From: Geosiphon pyriformis uo1
Taxonomy: Eukaryota; Fungi; Glomeromycota
Length of the DNA: 64,000 bases
Assembly (NCBI GenBank): GCA_016748015.1
Contig: JAAOMT010000590.1
Location: 302,544-366,543, forward strand
Direction: 5' to 3'
Shown piece by piece: positions 11,341 to 39,394 of the stretch. The position numbers were made by a program, and so were the translations under genes. Each line of letters opens with the position of its first letter. The first letter of the stretch is position 1. The notes beneath the pieces were generated by a model. That model searched no databases, was not told where the DNA came from, and saw only the letters and a program-made list of their open reading frames with translations.

Positions 11341-11579
11341 NNNNNNNNNNNNNNNNNNNNGAACAATACCTCGCCCAAATCAACACTTACCTCTGCGAAA
11401 ACTGTCTCATCCCGTGCCAAAGTCAGTGCTGTGAAGAGTGTCAAGACGAAAGGGACTTAGAAAGAAAAATGGAAATTGAGAATCAGCAGTCTCAAAATCA
11501 ATCAATAAATCAACAAGACTCACCTGACGGTCCCGAGTCAGAAAAATTTGTAGCCTATACCGACCTAGAACAGGTGACC

Positions 11580-12012: not shown

Positions 12013-12898
12013 GAATTGAAGCAAATTTTGCTGAAACAATAGAGGAAAAAGGCGAAGTAATTAAAAATGAGCGNNNNNNNNNNNNNNNNNNNNCCGAATG
12101 GAACCAGGTAAGTTCACGAAGAAACCACCAGCGACGCAGACCAAAGCTAGAATGCTCGGTTTGCAAGAAGAAACTCTTGTCTATGACTGCGTGCAGCGCA
12201 CCGGACGAAGACCCAAGAAACCCCACCCACTACTATTGTAACCATTGTAACAAAGAAAAATACGGTTACCCAGAAAGACACGGAAAATGGGACGAGGAAC
12301 CGTGCCTCACTTGTGGAGAACCGTTACCAAAAGGGTGTGACTGGAACGACTTACCAGGCAGAGGAGGAACGTGTGATGCAACTTGCCAATACACGATCCT
12401 CATCTGTGACTGGGTAAGAGGAGGAACGCCGTTCAAAGCAGCATTCAACAGAGCGTTAAAAAGACTACAGCACTACCCACATGACGAGAACGAGTTGTAT
12501 AACACCGCACAAGCCAAAGTAAGAGGAGGAACCGCCGAAGAAATACGACATTGGAAAGAGTCAGCCGAAGTAGCCGACAAAGTCGCCAGCTACAACATGT
12601 TCAACCCAGTGGACGAATTCCAGGACTACTACCAACAACTATGCCCCACTCGACAAGAGCAAGAACAATACCTCGCCCAAATCAACACTTACCTCTGCGA
12701 AAACTGTCTCATCCCGTGCCAAAGTCAGTGCTGTGAAGAGTGTCAAGACGAAAGGGACTTAGAAAGAAAAATGGAAATTGAGAATCAGCAGTCTCAAAAT
12801 CAATCAATAAATCAACAAGACTCACCTGACGGTCCCGAGTCAGAANNNNNNNNNNNNNNNNNNNNAATTAACTTCGATTTCGACGGAGCTCAATCTTG

Positions 12899-12912
12899 AA
12901 AGGAGGGGATAA
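12899..12912 (+). promoter_or_regulatory. Polypurine tract of B1
   Basis: AAAGGAGGGGATAA immediately before the TG of the 3' LTR. Confidence 0.88.
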
Positions 12913-13781
12913 TGTTACAGTTTAAGAATTTAGCAAAAAGAATCATAAAAATAATACAAACTATTCAATCATAATATAGCACAGTAATAATCTTAGAAAG
13001 GTAATGATTAACATAGTAGCAAACACCATCTCGCGATAGTGGCAAGCACCAGTTCACAATAGCAGCCAACACCAACTGGTGATAGCAGCAAGCACCAGGT
13101 TGAAATATCAAAAAGAAAGTATTTTCTCGTAGAACTACAAACATGTATATATACAGTAGTTTTAATATTGGGAAAGAATCAATCAAGTAATAAAAATCAT
13201 AACTTATCAAGCAACAGATCCAATTTTATCCAACAAACTCCACTTATCAAATCATACTTTCAAATTAAATATCCCAAGAAACCTTTAAAAATCAAAAAGA
13301 AATGAAAAAGAATATTTAAAACGGAACTATCACAACCCAAAGTATTAAGAAACTTACTTGTATTATTTATTGAATGAAACTATCATTCATCAACTGAATC
13401 CCTTGGAAGAATAATCCTTGATCAAGATTATTCACGTTGTTACTAATTGATAAAAGCTTTATTGTGAGAATTAGAAAAGCGCTAAAGACCATTAACATTC
13501 TGTGTTTCTAGATTAGAGAAACACATCAGGCAATTGCAAGGATAGCCTCAGAGAAGACCCCAGACAGTAGGTAGATTTCAGTTCAGCCTCTGAGAAGGAG
13601 TACATAAACACACACAACAATCAAGAATTAAAGAATAACTTACATCACAACAGTAAAAAGAAAGCCTTCAGTGTAACAGTGACATTATCACACAAATAGA
13701 ATTGAGGAACTCACGAAAGACTGATTGCAATTAAAGCGGGATATCAGCAATTAAATATAACAAGAAAACCATCCCGTAACA
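12913..13781 (+). repeat. 3' LTR of B1 (869 bp)
   Basis: TGTTAC...GTAACA ends. The first ~195 nt read identical to 7842-8037. 23-bp tandem motif at 13014-13105; TATATA at ~13147. Confidence 0.93.
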
Positions 13782-15608
13782 ACGTGATGGGGTATTGATG
13801 TGATATTGGTGTGTATTAATTCCTGGGCATTTGGGGTGGTGCATAATAATTATTCTTACATGCTTTGTGCATTATTTGAATTTGACATTGACTAATCAAA
13901 TGTCCTATTCATTTGCAAAAATGGCAAATACGTGTTTCTGTTCTAAAGTTCTGGTACAATGAACAATTATTTTGGCTGCCACTTAATCTCTAGTTGTGTC
14001 TTTGAGGTGGTTGGTATGTATTACTTCTTTCTGGGTCTGAAATAAAGTAACTTTCTATTTTCTTAGAGAGTTTTTCTTCTAATTGTGCTACTTTTTTTTC
14101 TAAAGTTTCTGTTTTGTTTTTTTCAATCACTATGTTAACTATTTGACTATGGTTAGCTTTTTTCTCAGCCAATTCAAGAGCTTTGGCAAGCATAATGGCT
14201 TCTGGTAAGAAATTAAGATGGACAGAGTGTACTCTTTCTAAAATGCTGTCTTTTAATTCTCTAAATTTATTTAAAATCTAAGGTTCAGTGTAGTATCCTT
14301 GCTCAATCGCTTCAATCTAATAGCAAATTCAATTGAATCAAGCAATGTATTGGGTAACAGTTTCACCTATATCTTGCTTGATAGTATTGAATTCATTTTG
14401 TAGTTAAATTATGGCATTTGGGTTACTAAAATATTCTAAGAGTGTGTTTTTGAATTCAGCAAAACTTGTGGGTTTTCTTTCCAAGCTTTAATACCACAAG
14501 TCAGCAGTGTCTTTCAGAAAGAAAAGTAACATTTGGATTGCTCTTTAATCATTTTAATTATTTGTTTAGATGGCTTTTTGTGTTTCTCTAAACCATATAT
14601 ACATATCCATTTTTTCTTCCTCTCCTGAGAAATTCATTAGTCATGTGATATACAATATGGCCATTTTATTGTTGTTTTCTATTGGTGGGTTTATTAGTCT
14701 AAAAAGAGGTAAGATGATATTTCCTTGAGCATCCCTAAAGGCAGCTTTTTTTATATCCAGTTTTTCCTTCTGATCACGAGTTTTTTGGTTCCTGAACTGG
14801 TTGCTTGTTTCAGTGACCAGTTTTGTGCTTGTTTTTTCACTGGTTTCTTCTTTGGATTCTAATTCAGACTTCTTTTTATGATTTTCAAACCCTGTTCCAA
14901 ATTTTGGTTGAAAAAGAGGTTTTTGAAATAGTAATGAATATTCTCCTGTAATTAGTATATCTCCTCAATTGTATTGTTTGAGCTTTTCAGTGTAATTAAA
15001 AATTCTCAGCATTTGTGGGATTGATGTGAATGATAATCCAGCTCTTAATAGAAGTTGGATTTTATTATCTGGAAAAAAATGATAAGATCTTTTTTCTGGT
15101 GAATGAAGGTGTTGTTTTTTTACTGATTGCACAATGTTTTTCTTGGGTGTTTGGACAGATGTTCCTAATTTTTGCTGATTTTCTTCATAATTAATTTCTG
15201 AATTGTGGAAGCATTCTGGTGTTTTTTGTGAATATTGGGTAATTTTTATTGGCATATTGCTTAATTTCGTAATGAATTCAAACAATAGTTGTGGCTACTG
15301 CTGTTGTTTTTTTTGTAGTAAATTAAAATAATTCTTTATATAATTAATGTTTTGCATTATGTGGTTCTTCTTACCTTCCTATGTGATAATTTATTTTGGC
15401 ATTAATGTAATAGGTAAGGGTGTTTTTAACTGAACAACACTCTTCTGGTAATCTAAAATTACTTTGATATTGTAAATAAAGGGCATGGTAGAATTCAATA
15501 ACAGTAAGATTAGAAGTTTTTGTCACCATTTTGGTTTTCCTTCTTTAGCAATGAATTATTACTAATTATTATTTTTTTTAATTATTTTTTTTCATAAGAT
15601 TCACCAAA

Positions 15609-16441
15609 TGTTACAGAATGGTTTTTTTGGTTATTTTAATTGCTAATATCTTGTTTTAATTGCAATTAGTCTCTTATAAGTTCCTCAATTCTATTTGTGT
15701 AATAATATTACTATTATACTAAAGGCTTTCTCTTAATGTCATGATATAAGTTATTTCTCAATTTTTGATTGTTGTGTGTGTGTTTATGTACTTCTTTCTA
15801 GAGGCTGAACTGAAATCTACCCACTGTTTGGGGTCTTCTCTGAGACTATCCTTGCAATTGTTTGATGTGTTTCTCTAATTTAAAAACACAGAATATTAAT
15901 AGCCTTTAACACTTTTCCTAATTCTCACAATAAAGCTTTTATTAATTAGTAACAATATAAATAATCTTGATCAGAAATTATTCTTCTAAGAAATTTAGCT
16001 AATGAATGATAGTTTCATTCAATAAATGATACAATTAAGTTTTTTAATACTTTGAGTTGTGATCATTCAGTTTTTAATATTCTTTTTTATTTCTTTTTGA
16101 TTAAAGGTTTTTGTGGATATTTATTTTAAAAGTAAAGATTAGAAGATAATTAAAGTGAAACTGTTGGATGAATTGTTTGATAATTTGTTTTATAATTTCT
16201 TGTTTTTCTCAATATTAAAGTTACTATATATATACATGTTTGTAATTCTATGAGAAAACATATTGTAATATTTTTTTTTAATATTTCAATTTGGTGTTTG
16301 CTGCTATTACCAGTTGGTGTTGGTTATTATTGTGAAATAGTATTTGTTATTATGTTAATCATTACCTTTCTAAGATTATTACTGTGCTATATTATGATTG
16401 GATAATTTATGATTCTTTTGCTAAATTTTTAAACTGTAATA
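15609..16441 (-). repeat. 5' LTR of B-old
   Basis: Reverse complement of the B LTR with many transitions; abuts PBS-like TTTGGTG at 15602-15608. Confidence 0.88.
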
Positions 16442-17775
16442 CTATTAACCAGAAAATACAAGATGCTTTGTTGTATATTAATAGATGTTTTATTTCAATT
16501 GCAAAAAAGATTAAGTTATATTATTACTTGGAAATTTTTATTTCCATCAAGAGTTTTTTTAAGTCTAGTTTGACCAAAACTTATTTAAATATTAGGTTTT
16601 TTGCAAATATGATTTTGAAAAAAATAATCTTGGATAAACAGTTTTGTTATTTGGTTTTTGTTATTTTGTAATTTATTATTAGTTACTGTATACACTTTAG
16701 TTTTGTTTTAATTAATGTTTACTATAAGTGAAATGTTTTAATTAAAAAGAATTTGAAATTAAAAGCTAAATTGTTTAAAGATTTTTCTAATAAAGTTTTG
16801 TACTATCTACTATTATATAATTTAAAATTTTTAAACAATTGCAAGTTAAAGATAAAATGGTTTCAGTTATTATGTTTGTAAATTCTGAAAATATTTTTGG
16901 CTGTCTTTTTAATTATTACTTTTTGAATTTATAGACATTAGATTGGATTTTAAGTAATTTTTTATAGTATTTTGTTAGATTAAGAATTAATTTTATAAAC
17001 AATTTTTATAAAAGTTTTTTTAAATAATGAACTTTTATTAATAAGCAATTTGTCACAGGTTTTTTATAATCTAAACAGATTTTTAATATTTAATATTTTG
17101 GGTAGGACAGTTTACTATAAGATAATAGTTTCTCTAAAGTGTTTTGATATTGTTTTTAATAACAAACTTTTGAACAAATATAGTGTGTTAATAACTTAAA
17201 AAATGTTTTATTATTGAAAAAAACTGGATTTAAAAAGTGTTGTTTTATCTTGATTTATAATAACATTTGGTTTTTTGGATTAATTAAGATCTGTTATTAA
17301 GAATAAAGTGGCTGTTTTAAGTTTAATGTTTTATAATGTCTTGAATTTGAATGGTTTTAAGTTAATCAAAAATCTTTTACATAAAGTTTAAATTAATGTT
17401 TTTAATATTTACACTAATAACTTATTGAAAAATTTAGACTTATTAATAATAATTAAAAAAACAGTTGTTTATTTCTTAAATATAAATATTAGAATTTTTA
17501 GTATGGTATTCTCTATAATAACTAAGTTATAAGCTGTTGTTTTGGCTTTGAAATATATGTTTTTTTTAGCATTATGGTTTTGTATCTAAATAACCAAACA
17601 GCTATTAATATATGCACTTTAGAACTCAGTTTGTTTAAGCCAAACTTTTACAACTAATGTTAAATAAAGAAATATTATGTTATTAATTTAATAAAAAGCA
17701 AAAATTTAAAGATAATTTAATTAAAAATCAAGAATTATTTGAGTATTTTTGGTAATAATTATGTAAATAAGCTGG

Positions 17776-18625
17776 TGTTATTTATAGAATATAGAAATTA
17801 TACATTAGTACATAAAGTAACCAATTAGAATAAGACATAGTAAAAGTAAAATTTTAGGATTTCTTTCAGAGGAATTGCAGGATTCTAGAATTACAGGATT
17901 CTAGTATAAAGAATTGCTCTCAAGAAATTACAGGATTCCAGAAATTTTAGAATTTCTGGTTAGAGAATTGAAAAATTCAAGAAATCTTGTATAATAAAAT
18001 TTATGTATATATAACAATAGTATTAGAAACAAAAAAGAGAATCCTTAGTTTAGAGCTTTTAGCTCCAACTCCATACTCATCTTTTCATATAATAGTGTTT
18101 TATAACTTGAAATAGAAACATTAAATATTAATAAAATATTTGTTACTATTACAATCTATTTTTTTATTATCAATAACTTATGTTAATAACTATCAATATT
18201 TAATTATACTGAACCAATAGTTCTTGATCATGGCTATTGATAGAATATTAACTTCTAAATTGTCTTGGCTTATTTTTTTTTATGTTTTGATTTTATTTCT
18301 TTTTTTATTTTGTTTTGTTGTATACTAATTAATTAAGAATTAAGTGCTAAGTTACTGATGTTAAAAATTGCTTGGTAAAAGACTCCTGTGAGCAGGTAAA
18401 CACTTGAAATTAAGGATTACTTATCAGAGAATTGCTGATTACCAAGCCAAGAAAAGAATTGATGAAATTGTGATTCTAAGAGACTACTAAAACAACTATT
18501 AAATCTCTGTTTATTATACAAAAGACTCCACCAAAACTTTCAGATATTACCAATCATATTAGCTATTGAGCACCAAGTTATGAGTTTGTTATTTGTTTTT
18601 AGACTCCAAATAATCACTTATAACA
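17776..18625 (+). repeat. 5' LTR of D (850 bp)
   Basis: Pairs with 37415-38265; related to the A LTR. Confidence 0.88.
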
Positions 18626-21600
18626 TTTGGTACTCTCTGTAAGATATATAAATTTACAGAAAACTAGCACCAGCAATAACCATTTAAAAGTGACAGAATT
18701 TGAAAGAAAAGGAACAAACTATCTAAAATTCACCAAATTTTTATTTCAACATTACTGTCAATACTTGGAATTAACCAACAACCAACTATCAGCAGAATCA
18801 GTCTTCAATTTTTATGTCAACAAAAGAATTAAATATTTTCTAGAAGAACCAATAAATACAAAATCAGTAAGAAAAAATTTTTATGATAAATTAATTCAAT
18901 ATATTAGCTTATTATTAAACTACAACTTTGTTCTAATCATTATTAAAATCAATAAAAAGATTGAAAATTACACCCAACAAATATTTTCTATTATATACAC
19001 AGAAAAAAACAAAAAAAAACTACAAATACTAGCAAAAACAAAGCAAATACATTTACCTACTTAAAAAAAACAGAAAGTTGATTTACTAGTGAATTTATTA
19101 TATTATTACACATCTAAAAATACCATCAATATAACATTAACAGATATGTCTACAACAAACATAACAATATCACTAAACAGAATTTTATTTCTAAAGTAAA
19201 GAGAAAAAAGCAGAATTATTAGGAACCTACAGTGATTATTTTGAGAGATTTAAATCATAATCCCCAATGCCATCAGAATTTTAATCCCTGCCACCTCAAC
19301 CAAATTTCGAAACTGCTAGTTCTTGGGAAGTAATAAAATCAGAAGAAAAGAAAGACAAAGATCAGGAATTTAATTATCAAAACCCAATTCCAAAAAATTC
19401 AGAAATACAAACTCTAATTGTTTGAACTTAGCAAAACTCAAACAATTCAAACTCCACCCCTATTGTTTACCAAAACTTACTTCCAGTAATCATGATAGAC
19501 CCATCAGTTAACCCAATTGCTAAACAGCAACAACAACAGCAACAACTACCACTTTAGCAATTACTTCAATAACAATCATCACCAATAGTCTATGCACCAA
19601 TTGCAAAAATTGAAAAATTTACCAGCAAAAAGAACAATGCCCAAGCATGATTAAATAACATTGTCAAAGCAATTGCAGCCAATAATTGGGATAACACCAG
19701 AGCTCTTCAGACAATCTCATATTTTTTCCAAGATATAGCCAATTTATGGTACCAAAATCTTGTAAACAAACTTCAAGGTTTTAATGCATTCAAAGTCATA
19801 TTTCTACAATATTTTAGCAATCATAACAGTATTAATTACTTAATTACTAGCTTTACCACCATTGGGCAAAGAGATACTGAAACAGTCACTACTTATTTGA
19901 AATACTTTCACCAAAATCTACATCAAATTCAAACAATTAAAGCTGACTATTTTACAATACCACAAATCTTGAATCAATTTATCTGAGGCTTATGCAGCAG
20001 TTTATTGCAATAAGTATGTTTAATGCACTTAAATACACTTCAAGCCATAGTCAATTACACTAGAGATTTCGAATTAGCTAAACTAGAAGCCAACCATGCT
20101 CAAGCTGTTAATCTAGTAATAAATAGATCATCTAACTTAAATTCGAAACTAAAACAATTTACTGAATTCATTAATCAGAAGTTAAAAAAATATTTAGCTA
20201 ACAACCATCAAGCCATTTATCAGCCACCATAATGGCATACAAATTCAGAAAGTTCTAATCAATTCCAAAATTAATTACATTTATTGTTAGTAACAAATCA
20301 ACCATGGCAATCAAAGAGACATGTATGCTATAATTGTGATAAACAAAACCATGTAAAAATAAATTGCCACACCAGAACTAATAACCTATGATCAGAAAAT
20401 CAGTACCAAAACTCTAATTATCAATTTCAAACCCAGAATTATATTAGTAATCTGTCATTTAAACAATATTAACATTAACTTTATTATTCACAAATAATAC
20501 AACAACTCATATATGCACTTTTAATATATCAAACTCTAGCACCAGTTATTTATCAGCAGCAACCACAAACTATTTATTAGCCACATTCACAAATCATGTA
20601 CTAATTGCCATCAATTTAAACTCAATCCCAAAACTTATCTCAAAACAGAAGCCAAAAACCAAGAATAATTCAAATCTACCAGAATTGGAGATCAGCAATA
20701 GTAATACACCAACTGATTTCCAGTTCAGCAATTCAACTATCTGGATCACAACAACCAAATGCAGAAACTAATTATGCTTAAAACCTGAATGCCCAACACT
20801 ATTTAAGTTTACTTATCAATTCAGAAAACAGCCAAACCAACAACTCAGAAGCCAATTAAATAATACTCACTAACAATATTTTATCTGCTGCCAGCACAGA
20901 GAATGAGTTGTTTGCTACTATTTTTCTTTTTGAATTAGAAAAGTCAATCTTAACTCTATTATTCAGTAGAACCACTTTTGATACAAAACTTATCATCATG
21001 ATATACATAGATGCCAAAGTTGATGGTCAATTTATCAAACTGATCCTCAATAGTGGATTAGCAGACAACATTATTATCTGACAACTCATAAACCAATTAG
21101 GTTACCAAGTTGATTGTATTGCCAGTATTAGGATTATTATAGCTGATAAAATGACCAAAATTCTTATTGGTGAAATTAACAACTTTTTTTTTAAAGTCAA
21201 TGACATTATTACATCTATTAAGGTGTTAATGATAAAAATCACTTAGTACCAAGCATTAGTTGGTAATCACTGGCTATTCAAAACCAATATAATACTTAAT
21301 TAGACCATATAAGAGCTTTAACTTAATTAAAACGGTCAGCATACATAAGTACCAGTAATCTGTGAACACTTTAAAAACTCTATACTGGCATTACTAATAA
21401 AATTTGAGGAAAAAAAAAGAAATCTATTTGGAAAGCCTACCAAGTCTTGTGGGCTAACACTGACTACAATAAATTACCACTAATACTTTCTTGGAACAAC
21501 AAAAAAAAAGAGAAAAAAGAAGACAAGTTACAAAAAAACACCACCACTAGTAATTAAAAAAGATCATACTCAACCAACACCAGACCAAAACCTTCTTATA

Positions 21601-24492
21601 TTCTACTTAAATATAAGAATTACAAAAAAAAGCTTTCTTCCATAAAAGTTTAAGTTATATCTAACAAAGATTACTGGACCAGAACTCATTATTACTGCAA
21701 GTTATATCATAAAAAATGCTATGGCTATCTAAAAAAACAAAATTAGTAGGACAACAAATCATGTCTCACTTGTGAAGAAACACTACTTAATAAGAAAATG
21801 TAAGATAATATTCTTGGATGAGGAAGAATGTGCAACACTTCATGCCAGTACACAATCTTTATAAGTGACTGAGTGAGTCATAGAACATTTATTAATGCAG
21901 TCTAGCATCAAATAATATCTCACTTGGATGGTTACCCACACAATAAAGACAAAATCTGGTAAATAACAAATGCCAAAATGGAAAAGTAAGATTCTGGAAA
22001 TAAAAAATAATCTACTGAAACCAGTTAACATTATCTTTATCCCCAATTCAAATGCATTTTTTGAAATTGAAACAGATCCAGAAAAATTCTATGAACATTA
22101 CCAAAACCTAGCATCTACCAAAAAAGAGCAAGAGCATTTGAAACAATTAAATACAAAATTGTGTAAATATTGCCTAATTTCCAGTGACTTCAAATATTGT
22201 GATGATTGTGACATTATTTATAATTTATCTTCACACATAATTTACATAATCTCAGAAGAAAAAAAATCAATCAGCAAATGTGCTGTAAAATTGGAATCAA
22301 AATTTAATTCCAATCTAAACTTCAATAATAATGATAATAACAATGACTTTAGCTTAATTTAAAATAGCAATAACAACAGTAACAATTTAAACTCTGCTTT
22401 AAACTCAGAACAATATATTACACTTTTTGATCTTTTTAAGAAGCAAAAACTCAAATAGTTTAGCAATAATAATGAAAGTATTATGCCAGAACATGTGCAT
22501 AATACTAATACAGAATTTGATCTAAGATATCCCAGAAAAAATGCTATCAAATTGAAACCATCTTTGTGCATATGCATTGATTTAAAATAATACTAGAAAT
22601 TCTGGTAACAACCATGGTTCAATTAGCATCTAGATCTAGTTTGACAAAGAAGAAAATCAACATTAGAGGAGAAATAATTGATGCAAAATATGTAGAAAAT
22701 ATTATTATAATGCTACAAAATAATTTAGAAAAATCATATATTATTGAAGCAAATGAAAAAATAATATAGGCAATATTCTTACTTCTAGTGAAAATAGCTC
22801 AGTTAATGTCAGTAGAAAAAAAAAATTAAGAATTACAGCAAGAGAAAAAAGTAAATTCAAATCCATAAGTAAAATAAATATACCAGTTAATATAACAGAA
22901 AAAAAAATTATTGACAAAAGAAAAGTTATCTTCACTCATCAATCAATTTTTATTTTACTATATGACTAGTATTTAGTAGTTATAAAAAGGAAAATAAGAG
23001 ATTAATCCCAGATTTTTGAAACAGAAGCTACCATTTGTGAATCAGGAGAGATTGCTATTACCAATCTTTACATACTGGTTAAAAATAACAAACACATCAA
23101 AATTTTCATTCACAACATAACTGAAGACACTATCAAAATACCAAGTGAAACTATCATTAAATATATAAACACTGAAGTTGAAAACTAACCTCCAAGCACT
23201 ATTCCAGATTTTTCACAACTGTGTAAATATGTGAATATTATATCACAAACAATATACAAACAAAAAAAATCTTATTTACTTTAACCAGAACAATTAGAAC
23301 AAATAAACTTGAGAAATTTAGACCTATTTCAACATATGCAACTTAAGATATTACTCTACAATTTTATTGATATTTTTATCAGTGAAAACAAATTTGGCAG
23401 AACTGACATCATCCAACATCAAATCAAAACTGGAAATACAATGTTAATTAAACAAAAAACATACAGAGTACTATCAACAAGCCATGAAATTATCTGACAA
23501 GAAATCAATCAGATGTTAAACAATAAGTTAATTCAATTATTAATAAATCTATGGTTATTATCAATGATACTAGTCTATAAAAAAAATAGAAAAATCCACT
23601 TTTGTGTGGATTACAGAAAACTCAACAGTATTACTTAGAAAGACAACTATTTAACTCCACAAATTCAAGAATTGTTTGATGCTTTTAAAGAAAAAAAATG
23701 GTTTTCCACTTTAGACTTAAACAGTAATTACTGGCAAGTAGCCATGAAACTGGAAGACAAAAAAAAAACTGCTTTTACAATCAAAAAAAGAATTTTGAGT
23801 TTGATATTATGCCATTTGGTTTAACTAATGCACCAGCCATTTTCCAATGATTCATAAAAATTGTTTATACTAGACTGCTATGGAAATTAGTAGTTGTTTA
23901 TTTGAATAACACCAATGTGTTCTTAAAAATATTTAATAATTATTTACATCACAGCAAGTGTTTGAAAAATTATGAAAAGCTGGATTGAAACTAAATACAA
24001 TTAAATGCTTCTTTGGTAAAACAAAACTGAAATTCTTGAAACATATTGTAAGCAAAGATAGTATCAAAACAGATCCAAATAAAATTGAGATTGTTAAAAA
24101 CTTTCCAGTACCAACAAGTCTTATAGAATTAAAAGCATTCTTGGGATTTGCTGGATATTACTACCACTTTATCCAGAATTTCTCCAAACTGGCTTAACTA
24201 TTCTACCAGCTCCAAGCCAAAAATGTGAAATATAAATGGACAGAAACTCAACAAGAAGCTTTTGATATACTAAAAAGAAAGCTCATCTAAGCATTAATAT
24301 TAATCTATTTAGATTACAACAGACCATTTATTATTATTACTAATACATCAGGTCAAGCATTAGGAGCAGTACTATCTCAGAGAAAACCGGATAGATGAAA
24401 ACATCTAGTAGTATATATTAGCCAAAATTTAAGTTCAGCTAAAAAGAACTATGAAATACCAGCATTAAAACATTTAGCTATTTATTGGGCAG

Positions 24493-25477
24493 TGTTACCA
24501 GACGAAATTAGAGATATCATTTAGCATGAAACTATCTTATAATTCCTATCATTAATTAGTATATATTATCATTCAAATTATCATTTATTACATTAAAAAA
24601 AAAAAATGTCCAAAATTATCATTTAATTAATAACCCAAATTGTACACAACACAAATATAACCTAATTGTGATGATCAATCATGCAATACCCTGAACTATG
24701 TAATATTCAAAAGTTTGCCGAAATTTATAGAAATTTGCCGAAATAATTGATAGTTCACTGAAATATCTAATAGTTCGCAGAAATAACTTGTAGTTTGCCA
24801 AAATGTATTTTTAGTTCAGTGAAATTGTAGAAAATAGCAAAGTTCAAGTTCATAGAATAGTGTTACGACAAGTTATATAAAAGAAGAGCTTCTCTCTTCG
24901 AGAAAATATATCTTACTTTAGTTTTATCACTTAGAACCATTCCTACACACACAAAAAGAAATAAATATCAAATAATTTGAAAAACCAAATTTTTTAATTA
25001 TTTGCACTTGGAAAATCCCCAAGAACCCAACTAACATTTTGAAATTGATTAGCTACCAACTTCAGTAAACTGTTAATGACTCCAGGCCTGAATTGAAAAC
25101 GTTTCCCTTGACAGAATTTCATTTCTTTTACATCTTTTTATTTTTTTTCTTTTATTTTCTTACTATAATCATTAGGGTAGTCTACAGACAAGATTTTTGT
25201 AGAAGAGTTGACTTTCACAGCAAAGTAACTATACATTTTAGTGAGCTTTTAGACGAGCAATTCCTGGGAAAGAATTGACATTTACTACAACGTAACTACA
25301 TAAAGTAACTGGCACAGAATTGGCCATTCCACTTATAAGCCCAGCAATTCAAATTATAGGAGATAATTTGAAGATAAATTCAGTTACTGGAGGTTCAACC
25401 ACATCCAGAAAATGTGAATTCACAGCAAACAAGCATCAACAACATTTAAGAAAAGAGACCAAAAACCTCTAGTAACA
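24493..25477 (+). repeat. 5' LTR of C (985 bp)
   Basis: TGTTACCAG...AGTAACA; direct repeat of 34105-35093; AGTTCGCCGAAAT-like array at 24709-24826; TATATAAA at ~24874. Confidence 0.95.
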
Positions 25478-25495
25478 TTTGGTGCTCTCCCACGG
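25478..25495 (+). promoter_or_regulatory. Putative primer-binding site of C
   Basis: TT-TGGTGCTCTCCCACGG directly after the LTR; TGG is complementary to tRNA CCA. The cognate tRNA was not identified. Confidence 0.75.
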
Positions 25496-28400
25496 AAATA
25501 ACACAGCAACAACAAATTCAAAGTGGCGACTGCCTCAGACATCACAACCTTAGAGTACTATCAATCGATTTACACACACTGCAAACAACAATTTGAAATA
25601 CGCGATGGAATCATAGCTTTCAAGAAAACACTTTTTCAATACATCGAAAATCGAATCAACAACTACCTCTTTGGAAACTATAATATTACAACAGTTAAAA
25701 GAGATCTTATTGAGAACATACTATACTATTCCAACACTGAATCAGAAAACATTAGTACTGAAGCTTGCGCTACTTATTTTAAAGAACTTGATTATAATAT
25801 TATTCAATTCTGTGAAGAAAAATATTCTGCAAACACACAATTTGTCTTTGAACTCGAATCTGAAACTGAAACCAGTAGCAACAAAAGACAAAGAGATAAC
25901 TGACCTGTTCACACAACACCCAATACTCCCAAAATATCATTCAAACATTTACAAACACCTGAACAAGGAACCAGTTCAAAACTTCCACTTACTATCACAC
26001 CTTTTTCAGCTTCACTTGCACAAGCACAAACACCTAATTCACCCTTAAATCGATTTGCAAGACCAGAAGATTTTACATTACTCAGAAGTCCCACTAGACA
26101 ACAAGAACCCCTTCAAACTAGTTCCAATCTCCTTGATTTTCTAACTGAAAATCAAAGTGAACACTCTGAGACAGCAGCAAACAAAGAAAACAACTCTGAA
26201 ATAACTGAAAAAGAATCAATAGACAGTGAAAAGGAAGAAGACGAAATGACAACATACATCGCAAAAATCCCTGAATTCAGTGGAGAAGATATTGAGACCA
26301 GTCCCCAAGAATGGCTCAACCAAGTTACTAAAGCTGGAGATGCAAATGGATGGAATGCTGCCAGAATGTTAAGAACAATTCCCTACTTTCTCAAAAGAAC
26401 AGCAGGAGAATGGTTTGAAAACTTGGCCACCCCATTTAATGATTAGAATGCTTTCAAAGCAGCCTTTCTTGAACAGTTCACCGACAATAACACCTCCATC
26501 ACTCTTCGCAATTGTTTTCGAAATATCAAACAAAAACTCTTCAAATCTGTTATGACTTATATTGGGAAATTCAACAAACTTCTCAGACGAATTCGCCAAC
26601 TCGAGACAAATGATTATTATTCTGATGCTCAAATTTTGGATCAATTTATCACTAGTCTAAAAAATAAACTAATTAAAAAGATTTGCTCACATGTGCCAGA
26701 AGATTTAAACTCTGTCATACAGCATGCGAAAAGATACGAAATGGCCATAGAAGAGGCCAACCGCACAAAACTTGTAAATTTGGCAATTGGAGAAACCAGT
26801 TCAGCAGCCAAGGAAAAAATTGACCAACTCACAAAGAAGGTTGAAAACTATTTCACCAATCAACAACAACAGCAACCCCAAAGATATCAACCACCCCAAA
26901 GATGAAATCAAAATAACTTTGCACCACTTTCCAATAACCAGCCTCAGAATTGCCATTACTGTAGAATCTCTGGCCACTGGAAAAGAGATTGCAGAAAGCT
27001 ACAACAAGACCAACAAAATAGAAGTAATCAACATTACCCTTCACCACAGCAATCTTATTATTAACCGCCACCACCAGCTTACTATCCATCAAGACCTCAA
27101 TACCAAAATAACTATCATTAGCCCACTCCACAGCCAATCCCACAGCAATACCAACAACCGTTCACACAACATTATCAAGTATCTGCTTGAAGACTGCTTA
27201 CACAAAATCAATTCACACCACAAAACCGATACCAAGCAAACAACAATAGAATTAGTTCGAACAACCAATTGGTTCCCTGAAATACCACTCAACCAAGACC
27301 CAACTACTACCACACTCAATCCAGTTATTTAACAATGCCGGAAGAACAGGATTTTCACTATACTGCACTCTCGGAAGGTAGAGCTGCAACACAACAACAA
27401 AACCCTTCCTATACTCCCACCACAATTCCACCAGCCAGAATCGCTGAAAACGCTAACCTTTCAGATATATTCCCTTTTGAATTCAAAGCAAATGAGTCAC
27501 CATTTCTGCTTAGCAATGCAGCCACCAATGAACAAAAAGCAATCATGGTCATATACACTGAAGCCAAAGTCAAAGGAAAGACAATTTGCTTGATCCTAGA
27601 CAGTGGATCTGCTGGAAGCATTATCACTTACCAGTTAATGCAACAGTTGAAAAGAAATGTCAACCAACCAGCTCAAACAGTAATTGTCACTGCTGATGGC
27701 ATGAAAAAGACCCCAGTAGGAGAAATTGACAATTTTCTGTTCACTCTTGATGGAATCACTATTCCAGTCAAAGTTCTTGTAATGAACGCACCCCAATACC
27801 AAGCTCTCGTCGGAAATGATTGGCTTCAAAAAGCCAATACTAATCTGAATTGGGAAACACAAGAGTTAATAATCTCCTACCAAGGACAACACGCCTGGGT
27901 ACCTGCCATTTGTAGTACATTCAACAAACACTCTGAAAAAGCCCCGGCTTTTGAATTTGAACCAGAAGAGGAAAAACCCCTCATTGAAACATTCATGGCT
28001 CTTGGATCAACATCCAACTGGGCCGAGGAAACAGAACAAGAACATTTTACCGCACACTTTGAACCTAAAACCTCTGGATAGAATATACCTTACTTAAAAC
28101 CCAAACCAAGAAAACAACGTTCCTATATTCCCCTTAAATGTAAGGACTGCCACAAGAAACTATTGTCAATGGGAGCCTGCATTTTACCTGAAGAAAAATA
28201 TAAAAATCATACTTGTTATTACTACAAGGCTTGCCACAAAGAACAATAGGGCCATCTAATAAAAAGAAGCAGAAAATGGGACAACACCCCTTGTTTGACT
28301 TGTGGAGATATGCTACCAGAAGAATGCAATTGGATTGATGTAGCCATGAGAGGAGGAGTCTGCGATCAGATCTGCCAATATGCTTTATCAATTTCAGAAA

Positions 28401-28869
28401 AAGTAAAAAGAGGAACACTCTTTAATGCAGCATACAACAGTGCTTTCAACAAACTTTATCACTACCCCCATAATGCCGAAATGATTTTTGACCTAGCAAT
28501 GGCATTAATTAATAGAGCTACTAAAGAAGATGTTCGCCAAATGAAGGAAGCAGAATACATTGAATACACCATGGAATTAACTGGATTCGATTACGAAGAT
28601 AAAGTAGAAGTCTACTACCAAATCACAAGTCACACCTATCCAACCCAAGAAGCTCAAATTCAATGATTAGAGCAAATAAACATTAAGCTATGTGAAGAAT
28701 GTATTATGCCTTGTGATGAACAGTGGTGTCCTGAATGCTACGCTCTTAGCATTCCCTTGTCCAGCAAAAATAATAAATACGAAATTGAATTTGGAGAACT
28801 TGAAGTGACAGAAGAAATTGAGACAACACCCATCTATCTCATTGAAAATCAGCCTGCTTTACAACTCAA

Positions 28870-29290
28870 ATATTTTAACAACAATGGACAAGGAATAAAA
28901 CCAGAAAAAGCCCACAAGATCAATGCTGGATATGATCTAAGATATCCAGGAAAAGATACTCTTACTCTCAAACCCAAATCTCTCACAAAAATCAACCTCA
29001 AAATTGTCCTCGAAATCCCACCAGGAGCAATGGTTCAAATTGCTTCTCGATCATCTTTGGCAAGCAAAGGAATCAATGTTAGAGGAGGAATCATCAATGC
29101 TGGATACACAGGAGACATCACAGTCATGTTACAAAATGAAACTGATAAACCTTTCAAAATTGAATATGCTGAAAAAATTGCTCAAGCTATCTATCTACCC
29201 TTAATCAACATTTCGGGTTTACAATTAGTTAATCAAAGAGAACAGTTGGGAAAAAGCGAAAGAGAAACACAAGGTTTTGGTTCAACTGGA
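28870..29290 (+). pseudogene. dut: C dUTPase domain
   Basis: NAGYDL, SRSSLA, GGIINAGYTG, EKIAQAIY, RETQGFGSTG. Confidence 0.92.
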
Positions 29291-29698
29291 CATTTCACAG
29301 TTCCAGTAAACATAGCTCTCAATGAACAGAAAGAATCTCACCAGATTTTACAACTTCCACAACCAATTACCATTTCACCCTTTGGAGAACACCCTGAAAT
29401 TTACATTTGTGAAAAGCCAACAACCACACAACAAATTTTTGAATCAAACGAACAAATCTGCTTGAAACATAAAATTTCGATCCCAAACATTTATATTCCA
29501 GAAGGAACAAAGAAAGTCTGAGTTACTTTTTACAATCCCAACAATTATCCCATAGTTTTATTAAATAACTTAGAAATTGGAATCATTTACAGTAACATCT
29601 TTCAACAAGAATTACCCCAAACAGTCCTTGATTTTTCTGAAATTATTGGACATTTACTACCAAAAATCAATCCAAACCCCAGCTCTGAAAACTACCAT

Positions 29699-30423
29699 TG
29701 TTACGGTTTAAGAATTTAGCAAAAAGAATCATAAAAATAATACAAACTATTCAATCATAATATAGCACAGTAATAATCTTAGAAAGATAATGATTAACAT
29801 AGTAGCAAACACCATCTCGCGATAGTGGCAAGCACCAGTTCACAATAGCAGCCAACACCAACTGGTGATAGCAGCAAGCNNNNNNNNNNNNNNNNNNNNN
29901 NNNNNNNNNNNNNNNNNNNNNNNNNNNNNNNNNNNNNNNNNNNNNNNNNNNNNNNNNNNNNNNNNNNNNNNNNNNNNNNNNNNNNNNNNNNNNNNNNNNN
30001 NNNNNNNNTTATTGAATGAAACTATCATTCATCAACTGAATCCCTTGGAAGAATAATCCTTGATCAAAATTATTCACGTTGTTACTAATTGATAAAAGCT
30101 TTATTGTGAGAATTAGAAAAGCGCTAAAGACCATTAACATTCTGTGTTTCTAGATTAGAGAAACACATTAGGCAATTGCAAGGATAGCCTCAGAGAAGAC
30201 CCCAGACAGTGGGTAGATTTCAGTTCAGCCTCTGAGAAGGAGTACATAAACACACATAACAATCAAGAATTAAAGAATAACTTACATCGCAACAGTAAAA
30301 AGAAAGCCTTCAGTGTAACAGTGACATTATCACACAAATAGAATTGAGGAACTCACGAAAGACTGATTGCAATTAAAGCGGGATATCAGCAATTAAATAT
30401 AACAAGAAAACCATCCCATAACA
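29699..30423 (+). mobile_element. Family-B LTR inserted in C (solo LTR, or a full element collapsed at the N gap 29880-30007)
   Basis: Matches 12913-13781; TSD CCAT at 29695-29698 and 30424-30427. Confidence 0.88.
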
Positions 30424-31909
30424 CCATGTTATCATGGAAAAACTATCTCGAATCAATATGGAACAACTTGAACCACAACAACAGACCCAGCTCAAAGAAC
30501 TAATTGCAGAATTTGCTGATATCTTCACTGAAAACAACAATGACTTAGAAAGAACCGATTTGGTCCAACACCAAATTTATACAGAAGATGCCAAACCAAG
30601 AAGACAACAAGCATATTGAGTTGCTCCAGAAAGCCACCAATTTATCCGAAAAGAAGTACAATAGATGCTTAACAATGGGCTTATCCAATTATCAATGAGT
30701 CCATAGGCCTTACCAGTGGTCTTAGTTAAAAAGAAGAATGGAAAGATATGATTTTGTGTTGATTATTGACAACTTAACAGTGTCACCATTGGGGATGCTT
30801 ACCCTCTTCTGCGAATTGATGACATGTTAGATGCCCTTGGAAAATCTAAATACTTTCAACATTAGACCTAGAAAGTGGATACTGGCAAGTTGCCATGGAT
30901 CCCAAAGACTGCCCCAAAACAGCATTCACAACACAAGGAGGAAACTACGAATTCAATGTAATGCCCTTTGAATTATGCAATACGCCAGCAACATTTCAAA
31001 GACTCATGAATGTTGTATATGCTGGACTCTTTTGGAAATCAGTAGTTGTCTATCTTGATGACACTGATGTTTATTCCCCATCTTTTGGACTTCATTTAAT
31101 TCATCTGTGAAAAGTTTTTCAATGATTACATAGAGTAGGATTAAAACTAAATATTGAAAAATGCCATTTTGGAAAAACAAGTTTGGCCTTTCTTGGTCAC
31201 ATAGTTAGTGAAGAAGGAGTCAAACCAGATCCAGGAAAAATCAGTGCTGTTAAGAACTTCAAAGTTCTATGAAATACTACAGAACTAAGAGGATTTATAG
31301 GATTAGCATCCTACTATCGGAAGTTTATCAAAGGATTCTCGGAAATTGCAAAACCTTTCAACTAGCTCACCACCAAAAACATGGAATACAAATAGACTAC
31401 TGAACACCAAAAAGCTTTTGAAATTCTCAAGAAAAAACTGACAACAGCCCCAATTCTCGCCTACCTGGATTTCAGCAACCAATTTTGACTAGCTACAGAT
31501 GCTTCATATACTGCCTTTGGTGCCATCTTATCACAACTAGATGACAATGGAAATGAGCGAGTAATTGTTTATGCTAGTAAAACATTAAAACCAGTTGAGA
31601 AAAACTACCCTGCCACAGAACTAGAAACAGCAGCTGTAATTTGGGCCCTACACCACTTTAATCTTTATCTCAGGCTTAAAGAATTTGATATTATCACTGA
31701 TAATATTGGACTCAAATGGCTTCAGAACAAAAATACTCAGCTAAATGCAAAACAAATCTAATGGACAGGATTTCTAGCAAATTATCAATACATAGTACAT
31801 CACAAACCAGGAAAACTCCACACCAATGTTGACTGTTTCTTCAGAATGAGACAAAATTAGAAAACAAAAACCAACACTCAACTTAACCAACCAAAAGAGC
31901 CAACAAACA

Positions 31910-33295
31910 ATGAATTCAGAAAACTACAACAATCTCAAACAATATTTGGAAACATTAACAATTCCAACAGATTGGTCTCCAGATAAAAAACATCAACTAC
32001 AACAACAAGCCAAACAATATTTTCTACACAATAACATTATTTATCATCGAAATTTCAAAAACCCAGACAAACCACTCAGACTAATACAAGAACAGGAAAA
32101 AGAGACCATATTATACAACATGCACTTAGATCCTTCATCAGCACACTTCAGAAAAGATAGCACCACTCAAAGAACACTAGAATACTACTTTTGGCCTTAA
32201 ATAAGGAAAGACATTCATGAATATGTCGAATCTTGTGATAGTTGTCAAAGAAGAGGAAGAACACGCCCTACTAAACCATTAAATTCAATCAAAGTTGGAC
32301 AACCCTTTGACCAAGTTGGTATCAATTTAGTCAGACCATTATCTATTACCACTCAAGGAAACCGTTATATTGCAGTAGCTGTAGACTATCTTACTAAATG
32401 GTCCGAAGCCAGAACCATTCAATGAGCAGATGCGAAATCAGTAGCAAATTTTATCTATGAAAACATCATTTGTAGACATGGATGTCCAATTGAACTTTTA
32501 TCTGATCAGGAGACATATTTTGTGAACAACCTAATACAAAAAATTTGCAAACAATTCAATGTCAAAAGACCTCTGTCTTCACCCTATCATCCACAAACAA
32601 ATGGACTTGTGGAACGTTTTAACAGAACATTGTGTGAGTTATTAGCCAAAGTCTCAACCAATTTTGAGCAAGAATGAGATATTTTTATTCCATTAGTGTT
32701 ACTAGCATATAGAACACTAAAACAAGATACCACAAAGCACATACCATTTGATTTAACTTACAGAAGGACAGCAATGCTACCAATTAAGTTTACAGTGGAA
32801 ACATACTCAGCACAACCAATCAATAAAAACAATTTTCAGGAAACACTTTAATGAAGAGCTTACACTCTGCTTAGCATGTTGGAAGAAAAACGACAAATAG
32901 CAGCCACCCATATTGAAAACTCCCAAGCTTGACAAAAAAAACGGCATGATAACAAATTGCCTCCAGTTACCAATAAATTTAAAATCGGAAACAAAGTTTT
33001 CTTACACAAAACTAAAGCTGAAAAACAATGGAGTGAGAAATTTGAAAATAAATGGGATGGACCATTTTTTATTCATGAAGTTTTAAACAATGGATCATAC
33101 AAGCTAAGACTTGATGACAAAATTCTAGCAAAAGTTGCACATGGAGATCGTTTGAAACACTATAATTCCAGAAACAATCTTGAACTATTAATTCCACAAA
33201 TTGGTACACATTCTCTTTTAATCAATTCCGAAGACATTCCCTGAAATTTAGAACCAGTAGTTGTTATTGAACAGCCTCCCAACTTGAACACTTAA
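31910..33295 (+). pseudogene. int: C integrase (HHCC, DDE core, GPY/F module, no chromodomain) in its own ORF
   Basis: ATG at 31910. HLDPSSAH...CDSC; VAVDYLTKW; LLSDQ; SPYHPQTNGLVERFNR; WDGPF. Several TGA/TAA stops derived from Trp/Arg/Gln codons. Confidence 0.92.
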
Positions 33296-33416
33296 TTTAA
33301 ATTTATTATTATAGTTATCTTCTTATAATTTAGAAACAATCTCACAAAAACAAAACAAAAATAACATAAAAACCCATACACCAAAAATAATTTTCTTTTA
33401 TTTTAAATTGCTTATA

Positions 33417-34093
33417 ATGACTATTCCTCAAAACATTCAACAATTATCTCAAAAACTAATGTTAGCTTTAAAAACAATACCCGAATTATCTATTACTGTT
33501 ATTGGAAATTATATTAATTATACCCAAACAGAAGTAGTTACAAATTTAGCCCCAAATTCACGAAAATATCACCTGTATAAAAAGAACACAAAAAGTTATA
33601 CTGGAATTCACCTGCCAGAACTTTTAAAGCTTGCTTTAAGAGAAAATCTAATGCTCACTCTGATTAGTATTCCACCAAATGCTACAATTTAACAAAGACT
33701 TCAACTGTGTTTCAATAAGGAAAACACTGAATATCCTCCAATCTATAGATATTTTCACATTGGAAAAACACTCTACAAACAGAAACTGGAACTTACAACA
33801 GCAAACCTCACAAAAGAAGCTATTCAGAAACAACTCCACAATAAATTCAAGACAACAGCTGGATCAACAAACAGTCGCTACAGGCTCAGAGCTGTTCTTA
33901 GACTTTATAACCTATTCTACACCTGTAAAAACGTACTACAAAACCCAATATTTCAACCTTTGAAGATTCAATACATTGGAAAGCTCACAGAACTGAAATT
34001 TCAACATTTTTCAGACCAAATTTCTTCAATAATTTTGGATTATTATCTGGAAATAACAAACAGTACTTGGACTTTGATGGAGCTCAGTCTTGA
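33417..34093 (+). pseudogene. C ORF3, unknown ~225 aa protein between integrase and PPT
   Basis: One frame is open from ATG 33417 to the PPT with a single TAA (33690). Its C-terminal part resembles D 37245-37330. Confidence 0.65.
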
Positions 34094-34104
34094 GAAAAAA
34101 ATTA

Positions 34105-35093
34105 TGTTACCAGATGAAATTAGAGATATTATTTAGCATGAAACTATCTTATAATTCTTATCATTAATTAGCATATATTATCATTCAAATTATCACTTAT
34201 TACATTAAAAAAAAAAAAAAAATGTCCGAAATTATCATTTAATTAATAACCCAAATTGTACACAACACAAATATAACCTAATTATGATGATCAATCATGC
34301 AATACCCCGAACTATGTAATATTCAAAAGTTTGCCGAAATTTATAGAAATTTGTCAAAATAATTGATAGTTTACTGAAATATCTAATAGTTCACAGAAAT
34401 AACTTGTAGTTCGCCGAAATGTATCTTTAGTTCAGCGAAATTGTAGAAAATAGCAAAGTTCAAGTTCATAGAATAGTGTTACGACAAGTTGTATAAAAGA
34501 AAAGCTTCTTTTTTTGAAAAAATGTATCTTACTTTAGTTTTATCACTTAGAACTATTCCTACACACACAAAAAGAAATAAATATCAAATAATTCGAAAAA
34601 CCAAATTTTTTAATTATTTGTACTTAGAAAATCTCTAAGAACCCAACTAACATTTTGAAATTGATTAGCTACCAACTTCAGTAAACTGTTAATGACTCCA
34701 GGCCTGAATTGAAAACGTTTCCCTTGACAGAATTTCATTTCTTTTACATTTTTTTATTTTTTTTTTTTTATTTTCTTACTATAATCATTAGGGTAGCCTA
34801 CAGACAAGATTTCTGTAGAAGAGTTGACTTTTACCGCAAAGTAACTATACATTTTAGTAAGCTTCCAGACAAGCAATTTCTGGGAAAGAGTTGACGTTTA
34901 CTACAACATAACTACATAAAGTAACTGGCACGAAATTGGCCATTTCACTTATAAGCCCAGCAATTTAAATTATAGGAGATAATTTGAAGATAAATTCAGT
35001 TACTGGAGGTTCAACCACATTCAGAAAATGTAAATTCACAGCAAACAAGCATCGACAACATTTAAAAAAAGAGACCAAAAACCTCCAGTAACA
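34105..35093 (+). repeat. 3' LTR of C (989 bp)
   Basis: Direct repeat of 24493-25477; preceded by a decayed PPT at 34092-34104. Confidence 0.95.
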
Positions 35094-35335
35094 GCAGTTA
35101 TAAAATGGAAAAAATATTTAAGCCAAAAATTTGATGTATATACTGATCACAAAAGATTGACATCAATTCAGAAACAAAAATTTGGAAACAACTACCATGC
35201 CAAAAGAAAATTAGAATTTTTATTATTCAAATATATTGTATATTATAAAAAAGAAAAAGAAAATAGAAATTTTGATGGTTTGTTGTGAATGAAACAAATC
35301 TAAAAACATTTCAAAACCAAAAATATAACAAAAAA

Positions 35336-37414: not shown

Positions 37415-38265
37415 TATTACTTATAAAATATAGGAATTATACATTAGTACATAAAGTAGCCAATTAGAATAAGACATAGTAAAAGTGGAATTCTAAAATT
37501 CTTCTTAAAAAAATTGCAGGATTCCAAAATTACAGAATTCTAATATGAAAAATTGCAAAATTCCAGAATTCTAGGATTTCTGGCTAGAAAATTAAAAAAT
37601 TTAAGGAATTTTATATAACAAAATTTATGTATATATAACAGTAGTATTAGAAGCAGAAAAAAGAATTCTTAGTTTAAAATCTTTAGTTTTAATTCTATAC
37701 CCATCTTTTTATATGATAGTGTTCTATAACTTGAAATGAGAACATTAAATATCAATAAAATACTTATTACTATTACAATCTATCTTTTTATTATCAACAA
37801 TTTATGTTGATAATTATCAATACTTAATTATACTAGACCAATAGCTTTTAATTATGATTATTAATAAGATATTAATTTTTAAATTGTCTTGGCTTATTTT
37901 TTTTTATGTTTTGCTTTTATTTTATTTTTTATTTTGTTTTGTTGTATACTAATTGATTAAGGATTAAGTGCTAAGTTACTAATGTCAAGAATTGCTTGGT
38001 AAAAGATTCCTGTAAGCAAATAGACACTTAAAATTAAGAATTACTTACCAAAAGATTGTTAGCCACCAAGCTGAAAAAAAAATTGATAAAATTGCAATTT
38101 TGAAGACTACTAAAACAACTATTAAATCTCTGTTTATTATATAAAGAACTCTAACAAAACCTTCAAACAACCAAAATCTTTAGATATTACCAACTATATC
38201 AGCTATTGAGCACTAAGTTATAAGTTTGTTATTTGTTTTCAAACTCCAAATAATTATCTGTAATA
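37415..38265 (+). repeat. 3' LTR of D (851 bp)
   Basis: Pairs with 17776-18625; termini decayed to TATTAC...GTAATA; PPT remnant at 37401-37414. Confidence 0.87.
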
Positions 38266-39394
38266 TTGGTTAAAGCAGTTACTTATTTTTTTCTGTTCTT
38301 TTTTTATTGAAATTTTGGAATAATACTTAGTAATAAATAGTTTTACTATGTCTAATAATATATGTTATTTTGTTTAAAATATTTATATGACAATTGCTAA
38401 TATGTATTAAGAAGTAGACTTTAATGCCAAGATTATTATTAGCTTTTTTATTTGTAAAATTAATTAAATACAGATAGTATTGGTTTGACATTCTGATTTT
38501 TATATGTTTGTTAATTTTATTAGCAAAACTATGACCAATTTTAAAACTTATATAATAAAAGCTATTTATAAAAGACTCTTAGTTGTTGTTTATAAAAGAC
38601 TGTATAATAAGTTATACTTGAATGTTTTGTGTTTATTCTGTGAAAAAGTGGAATTCTCAGATTATTTGTTTATATATTCAAAAAATATGAACCAACAGAA
38701 AGAATTTATTATAAGTTATGTTAAGTTTTAGTTATTATTGATTGGTAAAAAAATGTTCATATTATTTTTTGTATTATAGTCTTTTTTCTTTTTAATATTG
38801 AATTGTATATGGTGTTTTGCAAAAAATTTATTCTAAGAAATTAACTTAAGAATTTTTTGGCAATATATAATAATAATAAAAAGACAATTTTTATATTAGT
38901 AAGTTTTTTCTGTCAATTGGTTGATTACTATTGTTAAGAGATATAGTCTATTAGAATTAAGCTTAAATTAGAAGTAAAAAAAGCTAAATTAGTAAATAAT
39001 AATAATATAATGTTTAAGATAACTAATATATTGTGTTTAGATAAAATAATTTGTATGCTTAATATTATTAAATTAATAACAATAAGTCTTAATAGATATT
39101 TACTTTGTGTATTTTTTTTTAATATTGATAGTAGTTTAATTGTATATATAGATATGTAGTGTTACTTAAATTGGCTCAAATAATTAGTTACATATAGTAA
39201 ATATATAAGTTGTATTTAGTTAAAGTTACTTAATCTAATTTTGTATATAAGATAACAACTAAACTATACTTGTAAAATAATAATTAAAACAGCAAAAAAA
39301 TTTTGTCAAAGATTTTATTAGATTGTATTTTGTTGTTTATAACAAATTTAATGTTTTTTATGAAAATAATTTTTTGGTATTAAAAAACATTTCA

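Follow-up and report, generated by a model that had tools for sequence, protein, structure and literature searches.

Ty3/gypsy LTR retrotransposons of the fungus Geosiphon pyriformis carry, in frame ahead of the AUG of the capsid, a conserved and methionine-poor coding stretch of 241–293 codons which, as judged from sequence comparison, is a real feature of these elements. We propose, with a probability of about 0.7, that this extension is translated from a weak GUG start codon and that leaky scanning to the capsid AUG would give two forms of Gag-Pol. A GUG-initiated long and an AUG-initiated short isoform had been suggested by a first-pass annotation of the same DNA, and this interpretation is supported by the majority of valine at the start site, the deficit of ATG and a leader with no majority-state ATG.

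The window, by which we mean the whole 64,000-nucleotide stretch that was analysed, is a nest of decayed LTR retrotransposons. From sequence, its elements are Ty3/gypsy elements (Metaviridae) by LTR structure and by the order of capsid and pol domains: paired LTRs with TG...CA ends, a target-site duplication and a primer-binding site (PBS) after the 5' LTR are found together with a Ty3-type capsid and the order protease, RT, RNase H, integrase. The copies and parts on which the analysis draws are as follows.

8208–8872, + strand: piece of family B with the end of the extension and the capsid ATG (8437), from the sequence
8910–9772, + strand: family B copy B1, with stops at 8910 and 8916, GTG at 8946 and an extension open to an assembly gap
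13782–16445, − strand: B-old, a decayed family B copy with LTR, PBS and an ATG at the start site (15529)
17778–19620, + strand: family D copy with 5' LTR, PBS, GTG at 18690, decayed extension and capsid start
24493–25477, + strand: 5' LTR of element C, TG...CA, 94.3% identical to 34105–35093
25480–25495, + strand: PBS of C (TGG...), 2 nt past the LTR, assigned by position only
26246–33244, + strand: decayed gag-pol of C, with capsid, protease and dUTPase, then RT, RNase H, integrase and SH3
34105–35093, + strand: 3' LTR of C, the pair of 24493–25477

Element C is flanked by a GCAG target-site duplication (24489–24492 and 35094–35097), and a single register runs in it from the extension (25523) through capsid, protease and dUTPase to 29521, its gag-pol being split by a family B solo LTR (29699–30423). 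Pfam matches in gag-pol include Retrotrans_gag and Asp_protease, with Ty3_capsid under the cut-off in C and both Integrase_H2C2 and SH3_Tf2-1 under the cut-off; the YLDD of RT and the RNase H motifs were recognised by eye, and Ty3 Gag was matched at E=0.0017 with a family B gene model as the query. No tRNA genes were found within the 64-kb window. Element C appears to be inserted in a D element, whose LTRs (17778–18627 and 37417–38267) are 81.7% alike, and the D copy in the window is heavily decayed, with stops and frameshifts beyond codon 124. B1 and the piece with ATG 8437 lie out of order with assembly gaps between them, and the length of 293 codons comes from their overlap; the family B pieces at 7841–13781 and 61304–64000 are 96–100% alike, interrupted by N gaps and not in their proper order, as in a young family that the assembly leaves unresolved. 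C2 is a sister family of C, about 57% identical to it.

Some other features of the window lie outside this argument. A dUTPase, which is unusual for Ty3/gypsy elements, is found between protease and RT in C (28667–29521, +) and B (11853–12899, +), and also in a D-type gene model (P0192). Downstream of the integrase SH3 region of C, as far as its 3' LTR (33315–34104, +), there are two long frames without a Pfam match, one of them with a Met (MTIPQNIQQL...), which are possibly an extra 3' ORF. Another repeat, which we take to be possibly LINE-like, is present as related copies (81–84% alike) with long open frames at 46413–48485 (+) and 60063–61309; Pfam gave no match for its part at 47121–48482.

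Other copies were studied as 318 Geosiphon gene-model proteins and as contigs of one sample. The models give residues rather than codons, come from a single species and are not independent copies; as they lack DNA, valine at the start site is established across copies and the GTG codon only in the copies of the window. LTR sequence is reported to make up 41.2% of the G. pyriformis genome (PMC11952901). Among the matches listed, all 194 named ones besides the window's own were from Geosiphon, with no relatives outside it, and the representatives checked for organism, a subset of the 201 profile matches (51 of them unlisted), were Geosiphon in ten cases out of ten. A pattern scan of metagenomes returned 186 pattern matches, of which none was confirmed.

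The start region of C is divided as follows.

25520–25528, + strand: candidate non-AUG start, AAA-GTG-GCG (A at −3, G at +4), from the sequence and the tallies of gene models
25523–25849, + strand: N-terminal four-helix domain of the extension, with helices predicted at residues 7–24, 31–50, 55–69 and 79–101
25850–26245, + strand: Ser/Thr/Pro/Glu-rich linker, with a TGA at 25901 in this copy
26246–26248, + strand: capsid ATG (GAA-ATG-A), the first in-frame Met, with Met in the majority in B, C/C2 and D

That the extension encodes protein is seen in its reading frames, in the similarity between families and in the pattern of substitutions. In B1 it holds no stop in frame, against 11 and 22 in the other frames. 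The extension of C is broken by the TGA at 25901, which the first-pass annotation had not recorded; the same place holds a sense residue in all 112 aligned models, and 127 models run from the start-site Val to the capsid Met. No stop of its own before gag sets the stretch off as a separate 5' ORF, B1 being open to the gap. Family profiles align from residues 1–3 (probability 94.8 for B and D, 76.9 for B and C2, 54 for B and C, 100 for C and C2), with C2–D (8) and C–D (0.8) as weak pairs, and the protein similarity between families begins at the Val of the start site. It is specific to the gag frame for C and B1 (z 9.9 versus at most 0.8) and for B1 and D (12.4 versus at most 3.6), and has no frame preference for C and D. 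Between B1 and B-old, changes other than those of decay fall at third positions in 27 of 49 cases in the linker (P=0.0014) and 25 of 49 in the capsid (P=0.008), with no excess in the LTR (14/42) or in the helical domain (11/32, P=0.52); the helical domain has no indels in 315 nt, and the LTR has 13.

A four-helix domain is predicted for the first 105 codons or so, AlphaFold2 with an 11-row alignment giving four helices over residues 7–101 with a pLDDT of 83.7 and a pTM of 0.77, and the linker that follows is 130–190 residues long. Searches with the domain returned no Foldseek matches at E<=0.001 in PDB or BFVD, a best VIA-align Z of 6.9, which is within background, no usable match in the ESM Atlas and, for a C-type query, none among solved structures; matrix proteins were absent from the listed rows of the fold searches, and an empty search of this kind still leaves room for membership of a family. 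Pfam matches to PAZ_2 (E 0.0015, in three of 11 rows) and ribosomal L24 (E 0.013) were treated as noise. Neither a signal peptide nor a hydrophobic segment was found, the highest Kyte–Doolittle mean over 19 residues being 0.43 in C, 0.86 in B1 and 0.48 in a D model.

At the head of this protein stands GTG. The first-pass annotation had placed AAA-GTG-GCG at 25523 in C and 8946 in B1, AAA-GTG-ACA at 18690 in D and an ATG at the corresponding site of B-old (15529, minus strand), all of which were borne out, and the check it had proposed, of the codon in other copies, gives Val 201 against Met 14 in the 227 of 318 models that cover the site, over four families. Val stands there in 35 of 38 models of B, 122 of 136 of C/C2 and 44 of 53 of D, and Met in one, five and eight respectively; the remaining 12 residues are mostly predicted exon joins. 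Decay is strong in all copies and runs C>T and G>A, being highest at CpG (30% and 43% at 25493–25494 in the read table), so that ACG and GTG codons turn into ATG, which misleads gene finders. The copies with Met appear to be products of this decay, because Met is about as rare as the change of the next codon from Ala to Thr, which has the same G>A cause (none in B, eight in C/C2, nine in D). Of the two origins that had been considered for the ATG of B-old, decay or the ancestral state, decay fits and accounts for it, since 22 of the 51 G sites of B1 (43%) read A in B-old. Some D copies may nevertheless form a subfamily with a true ATG, given the Met in eight of 53 models.

The surroundings of the codon are also kept. 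The residue before the 201 Val is Lys in 189 models, Thr in seven, Asn and Ser in two each and Arg in one, and, as Lys, Thr and Asn codons all begin with A, the A at −3 is retained in all but three; Ala as the second codon likewise means that the G at +4 is retained. No strong hairpin is predicted after the GTG (−6.4 kcal/mol in C and −7.0 in B1 over 78 nt). A variant table of reads on the contigs of one sample, listed in full, has no variant at 4% or more at 25415, 25499 or 25523; another such table has none, among the 40 rows listed (234 further ones being unlisted), at 25901 and 26444, both of them evident stops of decay. Such tables may under-report variants at stop codons, and the blanks, including the favourable one at 25523, carry little weight.

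The extension ends at a methionine that is itself conserved. Met is found at the capsid start in 34 of 43 models of B, 100 of 111 of C/C2 (over two adjacent columns) and 18 of 22 of D, the other residues being mainly Ile, as expected from decay of ATG to ATA, and it is kept in three diverged contexts (MTTYI, MTTPYI and MAYAPI). Residue 141 of a B model matches residue 89 of Ty3 Gag, which by gapless extrapolation puts the Met at about Ty3 residue 26, so the product of the AUG would be an ordinary capsid-first Gag.

Between the two codons ATG is scarce. There is no in-frame Met before the ATGs at 26246 (C) and 8437 (B), and the further ATGs that had been counted by eye, one within 723 nt of C (at 25605, not in the gag frame, opening a frame of three codons) and three in B (9115, 9220 and 8426, all out of frame), are those present. 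The comparison of observed with expected numbers gives one against 8.7 over 723 nt of C and two against 10.1 over 825 nt of B1 (dinucleotide shuffles, P=0.0005 each), and ATG is the most depleted of the 64 triplets in the leader plus extension of C and in the extension of B1; none of seven gag-pol stretches from the capsid ATG on is depleted (P 0.14–0.91). The out-of-frame deficit holds against a codon shuffle (P=0.004 in C, 0.003 in B1), and disappears against a shuffle that preserves protein and codon usage (C one versus 1.9, P=0.31; B1 two versus 3.0, P=0.24). Among the models, whose copies are not independent, Met makes up four of 19,529 residues in the extension and 206 of 13,282 after the capsid Met in C/C2, 16 of 3,776 and 24 of 1,492 in B, and 12 of 5,216 and 44 of 2,979 in D. 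Two columns of the B extension are rich in Met (18 of 41 and 13 of 43 models), both with Thr in B1, which would fit decay of ACG to ATG together with a bias of gene finders to start there.

The depletion appears to begin near the expected 5' end of the RNA, which may be placed on the LTR of C as follows.

24874–24965, + strand: TATA-like box (about 24874–24883) and AATAAA (24960–24965), giving the inferred U3/R/U5 borders
24885–25522, + strand: inferred leader of C of about 640 nt (R, U5, PBS), with two ATGs (25076 and 25412)

Transcription would start just past the TATA-like box. In this region the density of ATG falls from 15 to 3 per kb, the LTR of C having six in the 392 nt before the box and two in the 638 nt after it, and both of the latter are minority states (25076 is G in 913,598 of 939,395 depth units, and 25413 is C in 476,344 of 528,394). 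The leader of C thus appears to be without a majority-state ATG after the box, which answers the proposed check for an upstream ATG brought in by splicing, as there is none for splicing to supply. No GT-AG joint at the start region was seen in the contigs of one sample, which are not recorded as RNA and so have no bearing on splicing. The LTR of B retains two ATGs after its TATA-like box (13302 and 13374, one of them common to three copies), which reach a stop after five and seven codons with no GT before it; they would need leaky scanning, reinitiation or an intron in the leader.

The first-pass annotation had also described an in-frame TAA shortly upstream in both families, and here the families part. 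The stops of B, at 8910 and 8916, stand: both are present in B1 as well as in B-old, and none of the models reads through, so the B start lies at most 10 codons from the GTG unless splicing intervenes. The TAA of C (25499, eight codons before the GTG) is probably not a family feature. All 31 models that continue in frame through this place have Gln there; 21 of the 31 are contiguous with the peptide of the PBS, and two of the 31 are C-type. As decay runs C>T, the TAA is probably derived and does not fix the start position; the read table, with no change at 25499, speaks against this. The C frame is probably open for at least 36 further codons upstream, with the near-cognates ACG (a state of 25412), ATT (25418) and AAG (25448), and holds no majority ATG whichever state 25499 has. 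The upstream frame differs relative to the LTR end among C, D and B-old; B1 is set apart from B-old, upstream of the start, by a non-triplet indel.

The leaders contain further shared elements. A motif AGCAAYAAY, which may be an RNA element, is found a short way upstream of GTG in C, D and B (25500–25522, 18668–18689 and 8908–8945) in different frames. The long U5 holds open frames of some 50–60 codons without ATG (25314–25475, +, in C; about 13520–13700, +, in B), out of frame with gag and often used by gene models; that of C begins at a codon whose counterpart in the 3' LTR is ACG and extends to the edge of the LTR, and these frames are possibly a non-AUG upstream ORF. Stretches like introns (GT, a pyrimidine run, a CTAAT-like sequence and AG) are seen at 25090–25165 (+) and about 13340–13450 (+), the latter of which, in B, would remove ATG 13374.

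The case for leaky scanning rests on a near-cognate codon in the best context at the very point where homology starts, on an ATG deficit that spans the RNA between the inferred cap and the capsid ATG, and on the conserved Met there. Most ribosomes would pass the GUG and continue scanning to the capsid AUG, about 1.3 kb from the inferred cap, with a minority initiating at the GUG. The shorter product would correspond to a Ty3-like polyprotein of the usual kind, beginning with capsid, and the long form would add the folded four-helix domain on a flexible linker, in few copies in or on the particle; our guess is that this domain is a matrix-like targeting or docking module with a minor role. Leaky scanning from two starts is established for MLV, Sendai virus and rice tungro bacilliform virus (PMC3542737).

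Other readings keep a long Gag and place its start elsewhere. Initiation could take place at one or several other near-cognates upstream, such as the ACG state of 25412 in C, with GTG as an ordinary Val codon; the 31 models with Gln at the TAA of C, with the 21 that continue into the PBS peptide, and a D-type model (P0228) that reads through the PBS in frame speak for it, and several near-cognates are used by MLV and by Neurospora cpc-1 (PMC5778647, PMC5487733). We think it unlikely, as the stops of B, 10 and 12 codons before the GTG, leave only ATT and AAG between, the upstream frames are not common to the families, whose similarity starts at Val, and GTG alone among the in-frame candidates listed for C has both A at −3 and G at +4. 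An exon in the LTR, spliced to an acceptor immediately upstream of Val, could instead supply an AUG and give long Gag a normal start. Nearly all gene models do join an upstream exon there, the LTRs hold many GT and AG sites, and in both C and D an AG precedes the GTG by 16 nt; yet the joins disagree (31 read-through; 24, 10 and 57 others), some need introns of at most about 35 nt, and the commonest start of the models (MELAI, 20 of 122) sits on ACA and ACG in the two LTRs of C and so fits decay of ACG to ATG. As the post-TATA ATGs of the B LTR stop in five and seven codons without a GT, and avoidance of ATG over the 720–880 nt after the start would be left unexplained, splicing seems to us an improbable source of the start.

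The GUG might also be the sole start of long Gag, with protease cutting close to the capsid Met, or the AUG form might come from internal entry or a shorter RNA. The retroviral Gag layout MA-p12-CA is one of matrix, linker and capsid, and the folded domain, Pro/Ser-rich linker and capsid of the Geosiphon elements resemble it; moreover, 1.3 kb is a long way to scan, and gag and pol share one frame. Such a scheme predicts neither the end of the ATG deficit at the capsid ATG nor the retention of Met across three diverged contexts, and about 895 AUG-free nt are scanned in rice tungro bacilliform virus (PMC3542737), so that it too is quite unlikely. That the whole pattern is an artefact of decay, with an ancestral ATG mutated to GTG or a stretch that is only non-coding leader, is very improbable. 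Met is indeed present in B-old and in 14 of 227 models, and the copies are riddled with transitions, but G>A and C>T decay yields ATG from GTG and not the reverse, while the stop-free frame of B1 and the conservation of the protein across families point to coding; the tallies of Val and Met and the direction of decay largely refute this reading.

The closest known parallel is the glyco-Gag of MLV, in which a non-AUG start in frame upstream of gag, on unspliced RNA, and an AUG-poor extension likewise give long and short forms (PMC5778647, PMC3542737). Ribosome profiling of MLV also shows a GUG start, with a density on the extension of 6.7% of that on gag (PMC5778647), and in glyco-Gag (gPr80gag) matrix is preceded by 88 extra residues that include a signal peptide (PMC3042739). 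At the level of sequence the Geosiphon elements share with it the in-frame near-cognate upstream of the gag AUG and the AUG-poor extension. Their extension is not glyco-Gag, as it has neither signal peptide nor membrane anchor; unlike that of MLV it is 241–293 residues long, has a predicted helical domain and no hydrophobic segment, stands directly before capsid and belongs to a fungal Ty3/gypsy element without env. PEG10, a Gag-like protein started at an upstream CUG and at AUG, is a domesticated mammalian gene with an extension of 34 residues (PMC2800197), in contrast to the whole domain and linker found here in mobile families. Rice tungro bacilliform virus has a non-AUG first start and about 895 AUG-free nt before a strong AUG, although its upstream ORFs are separate proteins (PMC3542737) and the Geosiphon upstream part is fused in frame. 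Neurospora cpc-1 is a fungal case of a long, conserved, AUG-less in-frame extension with near-cognate starts (PMC5487733); it is a host transcription factor of the Dikarya with several starts and shares no sequence with the Geosiphon extension. The plant Ty3/gypsy elements Athila, Ogre and Tat also carry extra, fast-evolving coding sequence before gag, defined there as separate ORFs, and the term non-AUG is absent from that account (PMC6317226). In the open literature, which leaves most subscription papers outside its scope, we found no report of a mobile Ty3/gypsy element of fungi with a non-AUG Gag.

Non-AUG extensions of Gag are known from gammaretroviruses and PEG10, and, if the present reading is true, this strategy is older or has been more often reinvented than assumed. 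More tentatively, and with the balance somewhat against it, a fungal Ty3/gypsy lineage may have evolved the glyco-Gag trick independently as a means of rationing, through a GUG start, a new four-helix domain of matrix-like or counter-defence function to part of its Gag-Pol, and non-AUG leaky scanning may be common in fungal LTR elements and overlooked, hidden because gene finders invent upstream exons. For Geosiphon itself, a few hundred gene models would carry invented first exons, initiation at GUG in Glomeromycotina becomes open to a simple reporter test, and a domain without known relative would take part in the particle biology of these elements.
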